Position numbers: made by a program
Shown here: positions 9,001-15,000 of the stretch, piece after piece
Position numbering within the stretch: the first letter of the stretch is position 1
Layout of the letters: each line of letters begins with the position of its first letter
Assembly (NCBI GenBank): GCA_023266675.1
Contig: JAHFPP010000006.1
Location: forward strand, 1 to 34,438
From: Candidatus Woesearchaeota archaeon
GTDB lineage: Archaea > Nanobdellota > Nanobdellia > Woesearchaeales > BM511
Length of the DNA stretch: 34,438 bases
Direction of reading: 5' to 3'

Positions 9001-12000
9001 TTACATTACATTAATCCCTTACTCAAAATTTAATGCTGTAATTGACATCAATGCAGTTCTAACATATCCTAACAACAATTTTATAAACTTATTTACCACC
9101 GATACACATACCAAACTTTATGTTCTTGTTGCTCCAACAGGTTTTGGCAAAAGCACGCTTATTAATGAAATGAGGTATTTATGTGTTAAACCAATGCCTA
9201 AAGTTACAACTAGACCTATTCGGAATTTGGCTGAATTGCAAGATACTACTATCGAATTTGTTTCTGAAGATATGTTTACTAAATTATCAAAAGATGAAGT
9301 AATTATTGGTAGTCATTTATATAACTCTCATCTTTACGGTTTAAAAAAAGCAAAAATACTCAATATTCCCAATTCATACATAAACTATGTTGTGGATTCT
9401 TGCGATGTTGATTCTGCATTCAGGTTAAAACAAGAATTTCCAGATATAATAAGGCTTGTAACTTTGTTTCCCTCCTTAACTTATGCAGGGTTTGGTTTAG
9501 AAGAACGATTAAAAGACTTATCAAAACCTTCTTCTGGTTTTGATTCATTTCAGGAAGAACTTGATTATTTACATAAAAATAAGATTGCACTAACTGACAC
9601 AAAAGCGCGCTTGGAGCATGTAGTTTCAGAATCAAGAAAGTTTGAGAAATATCTGCCTCACTTTGACATCGTGCTAAAAGGATATGACATGCAAGCAAAT
9701 GTAAATCAATTATTATTGGAGATGGCGAAGTGATTGTGAATGGGGGAAAGTATTGATGACTTAATTGAGGAAAGTGAAGGTAAGTTACTTACTGAAACAA
9801 GATTAGAATTAACCCCTGAAATTACAAACATAACAGGTATTGAGAGATTAACAAGATTAGGTGAACTTTATGTTAAAGGTGATGTTCCTTCTGAATTATT
9901 AGCTTCTTTACTAGCTCATTCGACTCAGCTATCATCTTCTTTAAAAAAAGTTGAGATTTCTGAAAATTATGTCATTGGAAGTTTATCCTTCTTAGAAAAT
10001 TGTAAATCTCTTGAAATAATCTCTCTTCCCGATTATTGTCATTTAACAGATTTCTCTTTCCTTATGTCTACTAATTTGGCAGCAACCTTAAAAGAATTGA
10101 CTTTGAGGAACTGCGGCATCGAAGATATCTCTTTTTTAAGACAATATACCTCACTTGAACGGGTAAAACTTGGTAATTGCGAGCATATCCCTAATATTTC
10201 CTTATTAAGCTCTAATGTGCTTTCTTATACACTTCATGACTTGGATTTAACCGGTCTTAATTATTCAGTGAAAGATCTTAATTTTCTTGAAAGATATGCG
10301 TCCCTCAGAAAATTAAGGATTAGTATTTGTGATGGTGTTGAGGATTTCTCAATATTGGGTTCCAGAAATTTAGCTAAAACTCTAAACGAATTAGATTTAC
10401 AAACTGTTTTTCCAAAAGATATATCATTCTTAGAAAAGTATGAGTCTCTTGAAAAGTTATCATTACATCTTTCACGTATTGATTCTGGTTTCTCAGTGTT
10501 AAGTTCAAAAAATCTGTCCAGCACATTAAAAAGTTTGCGTGTGTCTGGAGGTATTAAGGATATTTCTTTTTTAGAAGGATATACTTCCCTTGAAGAATTG
10601 ACAATTAAAGGGGGTGTCTCTATATCTGATTTTTCAGTATTAAATTCTAAAAATTTAATTGAAAACCTCAAAAAGATTCGCCTTGAAACAATTGGTATAG
10701 CTGACGTTTCTTTTTTGGAATATCCATTATCTCTTGAAGAATTAACATTATCTTCTTGCGTCTTTATTCAAGATTTATCGGTTTTAAATAGCTCTAATTT
10801 AAAAGACAACATAAAAAAGTTGAATTTAACTTTTACTCCTCATTTAGAGGATATCACTTTATTTTTAGATTATAAAAACTTAAGGTCTTTACTTTTATCA
10901 CACCAAAACCTAAACTGGTTCAAAGTTGTGGATGGAAAGTTTATTAATCAGGAAACAATCCAAACACTTAGAGAAAAAGGAGTTAATGTTGATATTCAAG
11001 GGGATATTAAATCTCCTGATTTTGAACAACAGCCTTGTTTGTATCTGGTTTGTGGTCCTTCTGGTTCTGGAAAATCAACTTTAATCAAAGATTTGAGAAA
11101 AGAGATGAATGTTAAACAGTTAGTCAAATCCACTTCAAGAGAATTAAGAAATGGTGAAACTCCAATAAATGGGGCAATATTTCATAGAAGTTTAGATGAG
11201 ATGACAAGACTATATCAAGATAAAAAATTATTATTTTTTCATGAATACGTTGGCAACCTTTATGGTATCGGGTTATCTGATTTCTCAGGTTCAAAACAAT
11301 CCAATAATAAACATCTCTTTGATACATGTGATATTGACGCAGCATATCGTTTAAGAGAATTGTATCCTGGGTTTGTTAAAGTAATTGCCTTAATACCAAC
11401 AATTTCAGAGATTGAACAAGGATTGCAAAGACGAAATAGTTATGATAAACAAAACAGGCTTCCCAGAATAAAAGACGAGTTAAATCTAACACTTGCCTAC
11501 TCACAAGATGCAGATTATGTTGTTCATGGAAACAGTTGGAAAGAACGAAAAGATAAGATTAAAGAAATATTAAAGACTTAGTTATTCCCTACGTATCCGC
11601 TTTGCTTGTTGTACATCATGTACGGCAAAAGCGCTTTTTTTATTCTTTTTCTGAAAAAAAACATCATAACACCTCTTTAGTTTGTTATCGTCTATAGTAT
11701 AGATAAACGTATACTAGTATATAAACTTTTTTATTTCTTAGAAAAATCTAATAAAACTCTATTTCTCCATCCATGTAAACTCCTTTCTTGAGCTTTACCG
11801 GTCGCCACGAGTCCTCTACAAGCGTTGCATCAAGCCACTCTGCAAGCTCCTTTGGGTTGCCAATAGTTGCAGAGAGTCCGATTAGCTGCATTTTTCTTAA
11901 GACTTTTTTTAGAACTGTAATTATGACTTCAAGCGTTGGCCCGCGCGACGCGTCGTTTAATAAGTGGATTTCGTCAATAATAACAACACTTACAAATCTT

Positions 12001-15000
12001 AGCCATGGCGTATGGTGTCTTATGAGTGAATCAAGCTTTTCGCTTGTCGTGACAATCAAATCGTATTTTTCAAGGTAAGAGTCGTTTGAATCTGTGTCTC
12101 CAACTGAAAGCGCAACTTTGATGTCAGGATACCTTTCCTTGAATTCTTTGTATTTCTCTGATGCCAAAGCTTTTAGCGGCACAATATAAACAGCTTTGCC
12201 TATCTGATTATATATAGAGTTTAATGATGCAAGCTCTGCAATCAGCGTTTTTCCGCTAGCTGTTGGCGTGCAGACTAAAAGATTTTTGTTTTCAAAAAGC
12301 CCAGCTTTTATTGATTTTTCCTGTGAAGGCCTAAGTTCAGTAATCTTTGACTCAAGCTTCTCATAAAGCTTTGGGTGAATCTCATTTTTTATATCTAATA
12401 GTTTCATAATCAATTTAGAAATCCGTTCTTTATTAAATCTTATTCTTTTTTACAAGCTTTCCTTTCTCAAACTTGTAAACAATCGGTTTTCCTGTAGGCA
12501 CTTCAAGCGAAGCTATTTTGTAATTGGAAATGTTTTCAATGTGTTTTATTATTCCCCTTAAACTGTTTCCGTGCGCAGATACTATCACATTTTTTCCTGA
12601 TTTTACATCTTTCATTATATTTTTCTTAAAATATGGAAGCGTTCGTTTGATTGTGTCTTTCAGTGACTCACCATTAGGCGGCCTTATATCATAGCTTCGT
12701 CTCCACTCAAAAACCTGTTCTTTGCCGTACTTTTTTCTTGCCTGGCTTTTGTTTACTCCTTGAAGTGCTCCGTAATACCTTTCGTTAAGCGCGACATTAG
12801 AATAAATTGGGATTTCCCTGTTTTCAAGTTCTGGTGTGTGAAAGCTCCATCGTTTTTCTTTTCCTTCATTATGTAAAAATATTCCTGTGTGGTTTTGTTT
12901 TGAAAGAATTATGAGTAATGTTTCTGTAGCTCTCTGGAGTTTTGAAGTGTAAGCAACGTCAAATGATATCTTTTCTAGCTGCTTTGCGCATATTAACGCT
13001 TCTTTTATGCCTTTCTCGCTTAATGGTACATCAACCCATCCTGTAAACTTATCCTGCTTATTCCAGCGTGATTCTCCATGCCTTACAAGTATCAAGTAAC
13101 CCATTTTATCTCCTTCTTTATCAGTTTATTCCTTTATTTTACTTTTGCGTATAAATACATATCGAAATACTTATCCTTTAATTTAATTGATTTTCTGCTT
13201 ATTCCTTCTTTTTTATATAGGTTCTTTATGGCAACTTTCTCGCTTGCTTTATTTCTTACATCCATCATTATCTCAATTCTTGCAATACCTAATTTCTTAA
13301 AGCATATCTTTTCCAGATGTTTAACAACTTTAGATGCAATGCCTTTATTCCAATGTGTTTCATCAACAAAGTATCCTATCTCTGCAATGTGTTTTCTTCT
13401 CGGGTGGATATGGATTCCTGCGCCGCCAACTATTTTTCCATCAATTATTATTGCAAGCCCGTAATCTGTCTTGTTCTTTCTTAATTTTAAACTGTTTTTT
13501 AGGTAATCAATTTCTCCTTTAAGGCTTTTTGGCTTTGTACTAAAATACTTAAAATTCGGGTTATTTAATATTTCAAAAAAGCGTTTTGCGTCCGTTATCC
13601 TATAATCACGAAGTGAAATTTCATTTTCTATAATTCTATTTCACCTTCATTTTTGAGTATTTTGCGCGTCCTTCAAGCTCCTCTTCAATCCTTAAGAGCT
13701 GATTGTATTTGCATGTACGCTCGCCACGGGCAGGTGCGCCGATTTTTATCTGGCCGCAGCCAAGAGCCACAGATAAGTCTGCGATGAACGGGTCTTCTGA
13801 TTCTCCGCTTCGGTGGCTTACCATTATGTTCCACTTGTTTTCGTTTGCAATTCTTGCAGCGTCAAACGCCTGCGTAAGTGTTCCTATCTGGTTGACTTTT
13901 AATAAAAGAGCGTTACACATCTTTTTTTCAGCTGCTTTCTTGATTCTTTCAATGTTTGTGACGAGTAGGTCGTCGCCGACAACCTGAAGCTTTGATCTTC
14001 TCATGAAGCTTGACCATGATTCAAAATCATCCTGCTCAAATGGGTCCTCAATTGAGATTATTGGGTAATTCTTTGCAAGCTTGTTGTAATAATCTATGAG
14101 TTTTGCCGATTCAAATATCTTGTCTTCGTCAACAGTGTATTTTTTGTTGTTGTAAAACGTTGATGACGCAACATCAATTGCTATCTTCATCTTTGAGCTG
14201 TAGCCCGCTTTGTTGATAGCTTTTGTCAGGATGTCAAGCGCGTCTTCAGGGTTTCTTAAAGGGGGTGCAAATCCTCCTTCGTCGCCTACATTGATTGCGT
14301 TTTTCCCGAATCTATCAAGTAAAATTCCCCTTAGGGAGTAATATGTTTCTGAAACCATCATTGTGGCTTCCCTGAAATCTTTTGCTTTAACTGGCGCTAC
14401 CATAAACTCTTGAAACGAGAGTCCGTTTCCTGCGTGTGAACCGCCGTTAATTATGTTTGAGAAAGGAACCGGCATCTTCATCTTATAGCCAAGGCTCTTG
14501 TTTAGATGCTCATACAGGTTTTTATCATTAGCCATAGCAGCAGCGCGACACACTGCCATTGACACGCCAAGTATAGCGTTTGCGCCTAAATTCTTCTTGC
14601 TTTCAGTGCCGTCAAGGTCAATCATTGTCTGGTCGATTAACAGCTGGTCAGAAACATCCATTCCTATAATTGATTTTGAGATTCTATTGTTAACATTATT
14701 GACTGCATTCAAAACTCCTCGTCCGTGATACCTTTGCCCGCCGTCTTTAAGCTCTAACGCTTCATAAACGCCTGTTGACGCGCCTGACGGAACAATTGCT
14801 CGTCCCCAAGCCTTCTCTGCGATGATATCAACTTCCACTGTTGGATTGCCTCTTGAGTCCAACACCTCTCTTGCTACAACTTTTTCAATTTTTGCCATAA
14901 CACCACAATCAAAAATAGTAGAATATAAACTTTTCTCTTAATTGGGCGGTGTAAATTCTTTTTTTGAGTTAATATTAAATTTAAAACTGTTTTTTATTAG

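Follow-up and report, generated by a model that had tools for sequence, protein, structure and literature searches.

The window analysed here (34,438 nt of contig JAHFPP010000006.1, Candidatus Woesearchaeota archaeon, order Woesearchaeales) contains a short gene whose product matches the front part of the DNA helicase Hel308, and a gene on another contig of the same genome (C67) matches the remainder. Is Hel308 divided between two genes in this archaeon, how did this state arise, and might the two products work as one enzyme?

Two genes for parts of one helicase

The first gene (hereafter the N-half) and its surroundings have the following features.

11748..12407, minus strand: N-terminal Hel308 piece (RecA1 lobe and C-terminal hairpin), 219 aa; complete ORF with DEAD/ResIII and a profile match
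12246..12269, minus strand: motif I (Walker A) TPTASGKT, residues 47-54; all 8 residues invariant in 30/30 N-halves
11964..11975, minus strand: motif II (DExH box) DEIH, residues 145-148; D145, E146 and H148 invariant in 30/30
11865..11873, minus strand: motif III SAT, residues 179-181; invariant in 30/30 N-halves
11751..11807, minus strand: C-terminal tail W201-Y219 (WRPVKLKKGVYMDGEIEFY) with two short strands, aligning to Hjm 198-213
12408..12432, minus strand: 25-nt spacer from the stop of the upstream same-strand gene to the N-half start
11582..11747, no strand assigned: AT-rich spacer of 166 nt between the N-half and the convergent gene downstream of it

The complete 219-aa ORF reported in the initial annotation was confirmed by the reading of its start and stop (ATG at 12407, TAG at 11748-11750, minus strand) and by Pfam, which detects DEAD at residues 26-187 (E 1.4e-33) and ResIII at 24-182. 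An in-frame TTG 6 nt upstream of the ATG is a possible alternative start; the ATG agrees with the starts of homologues, the equivalent codons in 30 N-halves being 28 ATG, 1 TTG and 1 GTG. TPTASGKT, PLxAL, EK, DExH and SAT (motifs I, Ia, Ib, II and III) are invariant in all 30. So are W201, R202, P203, L206 and G209 of the tail, where F218 is conserved in at least 90%; the structure model of the N-half alone is less confident in the two tail strands (209-212 and 215-218). The closest solved structure is Pyrococcus furiosus Hjm (2zj2), matched over residues 19-213 of 720 (E 2.5e-63). Domain 2 of this protein begins at residue 198 (PMC2636818, excerpt), and the tail strands are thus counted to domain 2. 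By the P. furiosus borders the cut lies ~15-20 residues inside domain 2, and the N-half therefore consists of RecA1 plus a conserved hairpin, which refines its earlier description as RecA1 only.

The second gene (the C-half) is as follows.

C67:13732-15270, minus strand: C-half of Hel308 (RecA2, winged helix, ratchet, HhH), 512 aa; ORF with Pfam and structure matches

As had been proposed, this partner holds RecA2, winged helix and domain 4. Pfam finds Helicase_C at 65-160, HTH_61 at 174-258 and Helicase_dom4_arc at 310-434, the latter two above their cut-offs, and 2zj2 is matched over residues 229-689 (E 2.5e-91). The last domain appears as DUF7898 at 24 bits, under its cut-off of 27, with HHH_5 detected in relatives. 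The RecA2 motifs IVa, V and VI are present, motif IVa being worded as F/YHHAGL after PMC10484726 (excerpt). Invariant residues are H86/H87/G89/L90, T113/T115-A117/G119 and Q151/G154/R155/G157/R158; motif V and the arginine-finger motif VI are invariant in 29/29 C-halves. The C-terminus ends in a conserved Q-x-S-L-x-D-Y tail, which on our own reading resembles the PIP box of P. furiosus Hjm (PMC2636818, excerpt). Each half is present once in this genome, in which neither a fused Hel308 nor another RecA1-only or RecA2-only Hel308-like partner was found.

The two products cover Hel308 in a complementary manner without overlap, as the initial annotation had it: in NF002654, the full-length model of 739 positions, they occupy 12-217 and 223-716, with 5 positions missing. 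Modelled one at a time, both halves give confident folds (mean pLDDT 89.4 and 84.3). An alignment of 30 N-halves and 30 C-halves places the cut at the identical position in 30/30 families, every half having a start codon of its own, and reveals at the new termini no added sequence able to serve as a dedicated clamp. The N-half scores 283.3 bits and the C-half 469.2 bits against NF002654; neither reaches the family cut-off of 887, and no single polypeptide of ~700 aa at the curated family score was found. Use of this cut-off to recognize fused genes was dropped, because full-length genes of sister orders also score under 887 bits, which makes frame length the telling measure.

Upstream of the N-half lies a gene for a histidine-phosphatase/phosphoglycerate-mutase-like protein (12433-13104, same strand), with which it is possibly co-transcribed; a conserved equivalent neighbour is absent in other genomes. 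The downstream spacer contains no leftover of the remaining Hel308 and no Rfam match, and runs of N are distant from both genes (window 20056-20065; C67 2258-2267). When six neighbours from this genome were compared by tblastn with 29 N-loci and 29 C-loci, one match each resulted, and clustering of the flanking frames yielded a neighbour common to at most 5/30 loci. A cluster of 17 loci was rejected as an antisense frame of the helicase-half gene itself, no true neighbour. Since the neighbours are not conserved, they give no pointer to co-regulation of the halves.

Distribution and origin of the split

The two-gene state had been claimed for the order as a whole, and a larger sample bears this out. 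The N-half was found in 94/101 genomes from 100 families, in open frames of 197-335 aa with 55-71% identity, the C-half likewise in 94/101, and both in 89/101. With both genes assumed to be universal, 7.0 misses per gene are expected from genome incompleteness alone. The N-half lacks its counterpart in five genomes, among them G096 (100% complete, 20 contigs) and G010 (97%), and the C-half in another five, among them G053 (98%) and G037 (97%); a less stringent search with the family for the missing halves retrieved nothing beyond small pieces in G084, G062 and G037. The halves are also far apart, as stated before: in the eight genomes that have both on one contig, 29-423 kb lie between them. 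The split is present in the single-contig genomes G016, G025, G085 and G097. A screen of 401 genomes of the order for a fused Hel308, covering the top two candidates of each genome, found none (0/401) at E <= 1e-155.

Outside the order, the junction is crossed in one frame in 40 of the 42 genomes of the class that have Hel308. No Hel308 was found (E <= 1e-40) in 23/65 of the class genomes outside the order, several of which are single-contig; loss is thus possible, which argues that both halves are kept for more than inertia. Independent splits in G127 and G139 were rejected, as these frames run off contig ends, and so were apparent ones in G107, G159, G121 and G144, which by their coordinates start 3-39 nt from a contig end. 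G132 has a piece covering 1-157 within a 226-aa frame. In a scan of GTDB species genomes, 21/80 loci end 0-5 aa past the junction, under titles with a Woesearchaeota, Nanoarchaeota, Nanoarchaeia or "Methanosarcinales" label, and 55/80, from other archaea, continue for at least 450 aa. Moreover, 4464 protein clusters of 120-384 aa match at E <= 1e-40, and the best 120 of these 4464 are nearly all 217-231 aa long.

Both halves are, by tree, orthologous to the full-length Hel308 of the same class. The split forms are monophyletic in both domain trees (support 0.60 for the N-domain and 0.96 for the C-domain), their sister in both being the full-length genes of G111, G142 and G152 (support 0.98), and the stem of the split clade is equally long in both (0.157). 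Monophyly next to one and the same full-length sister in each tree indicates one ancient fission. Both pieces are under strong purifying selection across the order, and the divergence of the halves is correlated among 11 genomes (r 0.615, reached by 1/2000 permutations). Thus, two unlinked, complete and conserved ORFs encode complementary parts of an elsewhere-single protein, as in the naturally split genes of DPANN archaea.

A probable two-chain enzyme and its alternatives

Taken from sequence, the probable reading is a single ancient fission of hel308 whose halves would reassemble non-covalently into one Hel308 with a shared ATP site. The gene would have been cut once in the ancestor of the order, in the loop after the conserved WRP...G...F hairpin and just beyond the RecA1 lobe; each piece would then have turned into a gene of its own, with a start and a stop codon, and the two would have moved away from each other in the genome. 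The 219-aa chain, with motifs I, Ia, Ib, II and III, would bind the 512-aa chain, which would contribute motifs IVa, V and VI, the winged helix, the ratchet, the HhH and the PIP-like tail, so rebuilding the Hel308 ring with the ATP site between two polypeptides. The chains might be held by the RecA1 contacts of the one-chain enzyme, in which the DNA tunnel is made up of domains 1, 3 and 4, and docking of the hairpin onto RecA2 possibly helps; we propose the W201-Y219 tail as a tether to the C-half. In simple DEAD-box helicases, separated RecA lobes associate weakly, and assembly would therefore depend on the Hel308-specific ring. Such a complex would be a normal 3'-5' DNA translocase that serves repair and the restart of forks.

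Alternatively, the halves might have diverged in role, the C-half alone being an ATP-independent, PCNA-tethered DNA-binding/annealing factor and the N-half an ATP-binding module for something else. That the genes are unlinked and without common neighbours would suit such a division, as would the 10/101 genomes with one half only, and Hel308 annealing is separable from translocation (PMC10484726 and PMC13623763, excerpts). However, the number of misses equals that predicted from incompleteness, the divergence of the halves is correlated, and this genome offers neither half an alternative partner. The invariance of motifs I-III in 30/30 N-halves and of V and VI in 29/29 C-halves is difficult to account for unless the halves share an ATP site, and RecA2 motifs have no known use in the absence of a RecA1 lobe, or vice versa. 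We therefore regard separate roles as unlikely. The fission might instead have made a two-component switch, in which a PCNA-tethered C-half is an ATP-independent binder/annealer and the N-half a dissociable "ignition" subunit whose conserved hairpin docks onto RecA2 and completes the ATP site, a speculation to which we give a small chance. If true, the supply of one small protein would set translocase versus annealase activity, and the enzyme would be a natural SF2 motor with its ATP site between chains, as is presumed for a dimeric ancestor of the tandem RecA helicases.

Joining of the products into one chain, whether through a split intein or through trans-splicing of RNA, is very improbable. 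Ordinary inteins do exist in Hel308 of this order, and Pfam detects them in the C-halves of G093, G087 and G072, which serves as a positive control; in relatives within the phylum, tRNA halves are trans-spliced (PMC3491384, excerpt). Yet Pfam finds no intein family in either ORF, neither an N-intein nor a C-intein was recognized, and only 0-5 residues follow the homologous region in 21/21 short forms, with ~16 preceding it in the C-half. Protein trans-splicing, which the initial annotation had left open, is thus answered in the negative, there being no spare length and no intein family. Against any joining, start and stop codons are conserved; against joining of RNA, the 3' flank of the N-half and the 5' flank of the C-half have no excess complementarity in 11/11 genome pairs (z -1.16 to +0.98), and the flanks have no Rfam matches. 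Finally, an assembly artefact, frameshift or decaying pseudogene, which the draft state of this genome (83 contigs) and the contig-end breaks in G127 and G139 might suggest, is hardly credible, given that both ORFs are stop-bounded inside contigs, that the single-contig genomes have the same split, that 100 families retain 55-71% identity and invariant catalytic motifs, and that the best-matching clusters above are of almost uniform length.

Split helicases and the meaning of the Hel308 cut

The Woesearchaeal pieces have all five domains and the helicase motifs of one-chain Hel308/Hjm (PDB 2zj2, 2p6r, 2va8; NF002654, NF040935) in the same order, but on two polypeptides from unlinked genes, and the ATP cleft would be intermolecular. 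RecA-type ring helicases are homo-oligomers with ATP sites between subunits, Walker motifs and arginine finger being on different chains; Hel308 would share with them an ATP site formed in trans and differ in being a 1:1 heterodimer that goes back to a tandem-lobe monomer. In two small genomes of the class, Lhr is divided at positions 610/612 (G110) and ~410/416 (G126) of the model NF010338, and by the domain borders of Lhr both cuts lie behind both RecA lobes. The cut in the reverse gyrase of Nanoarchaeum equitans is said, from work by Capp and colleagues in 2010, to separate the helicase from the topoisomerase module, and would then not part two motor lobes as in Hel308; like the proposed two-chain Hel308, this enzyme belongs to DPANN information processing, includes a helicase module and consists of two gene products that cooperate. 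It is mentioned as naturally split in PMC3491384 and PMC6349945 (excerpts). Lhr ("large helicase-related protein") is split in N. equitans and Nst1 as well (Podar et al. 2013, PMC3655853, excerpt), again a DPANN SF2 repair helicase in two unlinked genes. The cut sites of these two differ (same excerpt), which points to recent, lineage-specific Lhr splits, whereas that of Hel308 is between the lobes and fixed across an order. In "fractured genes", one protein is likewise encoded in two separate genes, but intein halves ligate the pieces (Dassa et al. 2009, PMC2677866, excerpt), and the Hel308 halves, tested for intein features, have none.

We found no paper combining "Woesearchae*" and "Hel308", and no description of a Hel308 split in the literature on split or naturally split helicases, RecA1/RecA2, DPANN and archaea. 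The passages on the subject in PMC10946056, PMC11237513, PMC6349945 and PMC8407392 do not mention it, supplements aside (Table S1 of PMC10946056 could list cases among the 53 removed), nor do those of PMC13623763, PMC8301817 and bioRxiv 10.64898/2026.05.13.725050.

Genes in pieces are a familiar peculiarity of DPANN archaea, but in the helicases described so far the break comes behind the motor. In Hel308 it falls between the RecA lobes, which puts ATP binding (motifs I and II) on one polypeptide and the arginine finger (motif VI) on the other. Thousands of entries named just "DEAD/DEAH box helicase" or "helicase" are Hel308 halves, and surveys that discard "partial" sequences (PMC10946056, excerpt) will score the order as being without Hel308. 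Its constant position also makes the cut a clean marker for the order. To conclude, the split provides a two-piece Hel308 that is ready for use in mechanistic and nanopore work, and a natural test of whether inchworm translocation requires the lobes to be covalently linked.

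The two Hel308 genes of the source genome

The initial annotation had placed a RecA1-only Hel308 gene in the window and the complementary part of the helicase on contig C67 of the same genome, and both open reading frames were borne out:

window 11748-12407, minus strand: N-half, 219 aa, from ATG at 12407 to TAG at 11748-11750
C67:13732-15270, minus strand: C-half, 512 aa, with Helicase_C, HTH_61 and Helicase_dom4_arc domains

The N-half carries a helicase ATP-binding domain (Pfam DEAD/ResIII, residues 24-187), and its top matches among solved structures are archaeal Hel308/Hjm proteins, namely P. 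furiosus Hjm (2zj2; residues 19-213 of 720, E 2.5e-63) and A. fulgidus Hel308 (2p6r; residues 20-218 of 702). These matches end 1-3 residues short of its stop codon, after which a 166-nt AT-rich spacer is followed by a convergent gene, so that the rest of Hel308 is absent nearby. The C-half matches Hjm residues 229-689 (E 2.5e-91). On the full-length Hel308 model NF002654 (739 positions) the two proteins cover positions 12-217 and 223-716, which leaves just five profile positions unaccounted for. Each half is present in exactly one copy in the assembly (83 contigs, 1.22 Mb, 34% G+C), kilobases separate the genes from the scaffold gaps of both contigs, and public collections contain both proteins with these same ends.

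On the same strand, a histidine-phosphatase (phosphoglycerate-mutase-like) gene ends 25 nt before the N-half start; no neighbour of either half, this gene included, is conserved across the genomes compared. Two adjacent plus-strand genes of the window, 8534-9733 and 9740-11581, each end in a guanylate-kinase-like domain; in the second it is joined to a long N-terminal part of leucine-rich repeats, a combination that is unusual. At the C67 locus (L001), a stretch of 171 nt 5' of the C-half (15330-15500, minus strand) has a predicted fold far more stable than those of its shuffles (-45 kcal/mol, z -5.5); it has no Rfam match, is present once in the genome and is not conserved ahead of other C-halves. 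Contig C42 (L003:79-2004, minus strand) encodes an unrelated full-length paralogue of 642 aa (DEAD, Helicase_C and DSHCT domains; 30-35% identity), which is Mtr4/Ski2/HelY-like; the same model is matched by frames of 648-658 aa in G096, G084, G019 and G024, four compared genomes. In the sections of an archaeal Ski2 survey covered here, the Ski2/Mtr4 profile COG4581 is without any archaeal hit (PMC10946056).

Position of the cut and retained function

The junction was located by aligning 30 N-halves and 30 C-halves with 20 full-length genes. Nearly all N-halves end within a few columns of each other, immediately behind a conserved G-x-Y-x-x-G-x-I-E-F; the few that seem to deviate carry 1-5 additional residues scattered by the aligner. 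The C-halves start 10-20 residues ahead of a conserved I-N-x-A-L-D-T...K-Q-A-L-x-F, and neither new terminus has gained any sequence in this alignment. ATG is the start codon of 28 N-halves (TTG and GTG in one each) and of 28 C-halves (GTG in one, the last being cut by a contig end). Domain 1 of P. furiosus Hjm comprises residues 1-197 and domain 2 residues 198-399, as delimited in the relevant part of its structural description (PMC2636818), and by these borders the cut falls some 15-20 residues within domain 2. The hairpin W201-Y219 is retained by the N-half, and its W, R, P, L and G are invariant.

Motifs I, Ia, Ib, II and III are invariant in the N-halves of 30 families, as are FHHxGL, motif V and QxxGRxGR in the C-halves of 29, with mean column identities of 67% and 63%, respectively. 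In AlphaFold2 models of the single chains, which are silent on binding, each half is predicted to fold confidently by itself: mean pLDDT was 89.4 for the N-half (lowest blocks 151-160 and 201-219) and 84.3 for the C-half, whose last 14 residues are disordered. These residues (499-512; L001:13735-13776, minus strand) form a conserved tail, K-R-K-G-Q-x-S-L-x-D-Y, likewise predicted to be disordered. This tail is a putative counterpart of the PIP box reported to bind PCNA at the C-terminus of P. furiosus Hjm (PMC2636818), which it seems to resemble.

Distribution and history of the split

The two-gene state claimed for the order Woesearchaeales (N-half in 37 of 40 genomes) held in a sample of 101 genomes, one per family for 100 families. 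With the source proteins as queries, the N-half was present in 94 genomes (frames of 197-335 aa, 55-71% identity) and the C-half in 94, both together in 89. Five genomes had the N-half without the C-half (G010, G024, G062, G084, G096), five the reverse (G019, G037, G048, G053, G058) and two neither (G006, G054); a more permissive family search for the missing half in the ten one-half genomes gave small pieces only, in G084, G062 and G037. Since mean completeness is 93.1%, 7.0 misses per gene are expected from incompleteness alone, and 7 and 7 were observed. If one half has really been lost anywhere, G096 (100% complete, with the N-half alone) and G010 (97%) are the strongest candidates. When the same genomes were searched with NF002654, the frames holding N-parts measured about 217-281 aa and most of those holding C-parts about 500-575 aa, and no frame among those listed crossed the junction. 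In a wider set of 401 genomes from the order, 281 of them of good quality, no fused gene was found at E <= 1e-155, a level reached by the fused gene alone (best C-half, 2.3e-146). Two N-halves lie inside longer open frames, with 86-110 additional in-frame and possibly coding residues on the upstream side:

L092 (G096:C21): frame of 304 aa
L093 (G055:C94): frame of 335 aa

G096 is also the complete genome without a detected C-half. The halves share a contig in eight genomes and are adjacent in none. As claimed, they lie tens to hundreds of kb apart: 29 kb (G021), 37 kb on opposite strands (G016), 92 kb (G034), 93 kb (G098), 170 kb (G085), 275 kb (G022), 332 kb (G025) and 423 kb (G097).

Outside the order, Hel308 was found in 42 of 65 genomes of the class Nanobdellia at E <= 1e-40. 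It is a single frame of 677-863 aa (model positions <=22 to >=700) in 34 of these, and, in G140, one frame of 1233 aa that an insertion interrupts at model position 340; G121, G144, G159, G107 and G127 are cut by contig ends, yet one frame crosses the junction, which is therefore crossed in 40 of the 42. The other two are G139, both of whose pieces abut contig ends, and G132. No match reached this threshold in 23 of the 65, including the single-contig genomes G110, G126, G141 and G151 (94-98% complete), so that Hel308 can be lost in the class; the pattern points to recurrent disappearance of the entire gene from the smallest genomes. Among GTDB species genomes, a pattern scan gave 80 loci. At least 450 residues continue past the junction in 55, from other archaea (Aenigmatarchaeota, Nanohaloarchaea, Methanomicrobiales, Hadarchaeota, Halobacteria and Thermococcus among them), and 21 end 0-5 residues past it, titled Woesearchaeota (7), Nanoarchaeota (5), Nanoarchaeia (2) and, an unconfirmed label, 'uncultured Methanosarcinales' (7); four were uninformative or odd (L119, L157, L158, L163).

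Separate trees of the N-domain and C-domain columns (FastTree, LG+gamma, midpoint rooting) held 100 tips each: 30 split forms, 20 full-length genes from the class and 50 from other archaea, no row falling below the filter of 90 residues in the block. All split forms, and no other sequences, make up one clade (support 0.60 for the N-domain, 0.96 for the C-domain), its sister in both trees being full-length G111, G142 and G152 (0.98 in both) and its stem measuring 0.157 in each. This fits one fission of a vertically inherited gene, rather than two acquisitions. Across 11 genomes, the pairwise divergences of N-halves and of C-halves are correlated (r 0.615, reached by 1 of 2000 label permutations), which shows co-inheritance, not binding. 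The fission is old, fixed and clean, and both products are selected for their catalytic residues.

Probable assembly of the products, and other split helicases

The initial annotation had left trans-splicing open. Pfam found no intein family in either source ORF, nor is there spare length for one. Ordinary LAGLIDADG inteins do occur in the RecA2 part of three C-halves, so the method detects inteins in this lineage. They use two sites, near C-half residues 120 (motif V region) and 153 (motif VI region), and the first is also occupied in the full-length G140 gene outside the order (model position 340):

L089 (G093:C1), L091 (G072:C5), L090 (G087:C31): intein-bearing C-halves
L094 (G140:C3): intein-bearing full-length gene

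G079 has a similar frame of 1024 aa. In 11 of 11 genomes, pairing of the 150 nt downstream of the N-half with the 150 nt upstream of the C-half gave no excess duplex energy, and no Rfam family matched the flanks. Joining of the halves after transcription or translation is excluded as far as sequence allows.

Assembly of the two chains into one complex is probable. The products would bind 1:1, RecA1 being held by contacts already present in the one-chain enzyme, perhaps assisted by the conserved hairpin, and ATP would be hydrolysed at the interface between the chains. In the structural description of Hjm, as far as drawn on here, domains 1, 3 and 4 build a tunnel and motifs of both lobes line the cleft (PMC2636818).

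Split genes are well described in Nanoarchaeota; Table 1 of Podar et al. 2013, the portion used here, contains reverse gyrase and a 'large helicase-related protein' whose cut sites differ between two species (PMC3655853). Our literature searches, with the supplements of the Ski2 survey outside their scope, returned no paper describing a split Hel308; the survey itself, in its sections covered here, discarded 53 'partial' sequences (PMC10946056). In public databases the half proteins have generic names, and 4464 clusters of 120-384 aa match at E <= 1e-40. An Lhr-type helicase (NF010338, 877 positions), whole in G115, is encoded as two unlinked pieces by two small genomes in the class:

G110, C1:886-2679 and 356596-357366: Lhr pieces, model cut 610/612
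G126, C1:556128-557252 and 136556-137746: Lhr pieces, model cut about 410/416

By the Lhr domain borders, we take both cuts to lie behind both RecA lobes. Lhr cut sites vary, whereas the Hel308 cut falls between the lobes and is fixed over the order. By every sequence test, the split Hel308 is real, old and functional; it extends the known split-gene theme of DPANN archaea, and the position of its cut is mechanistically interesting.
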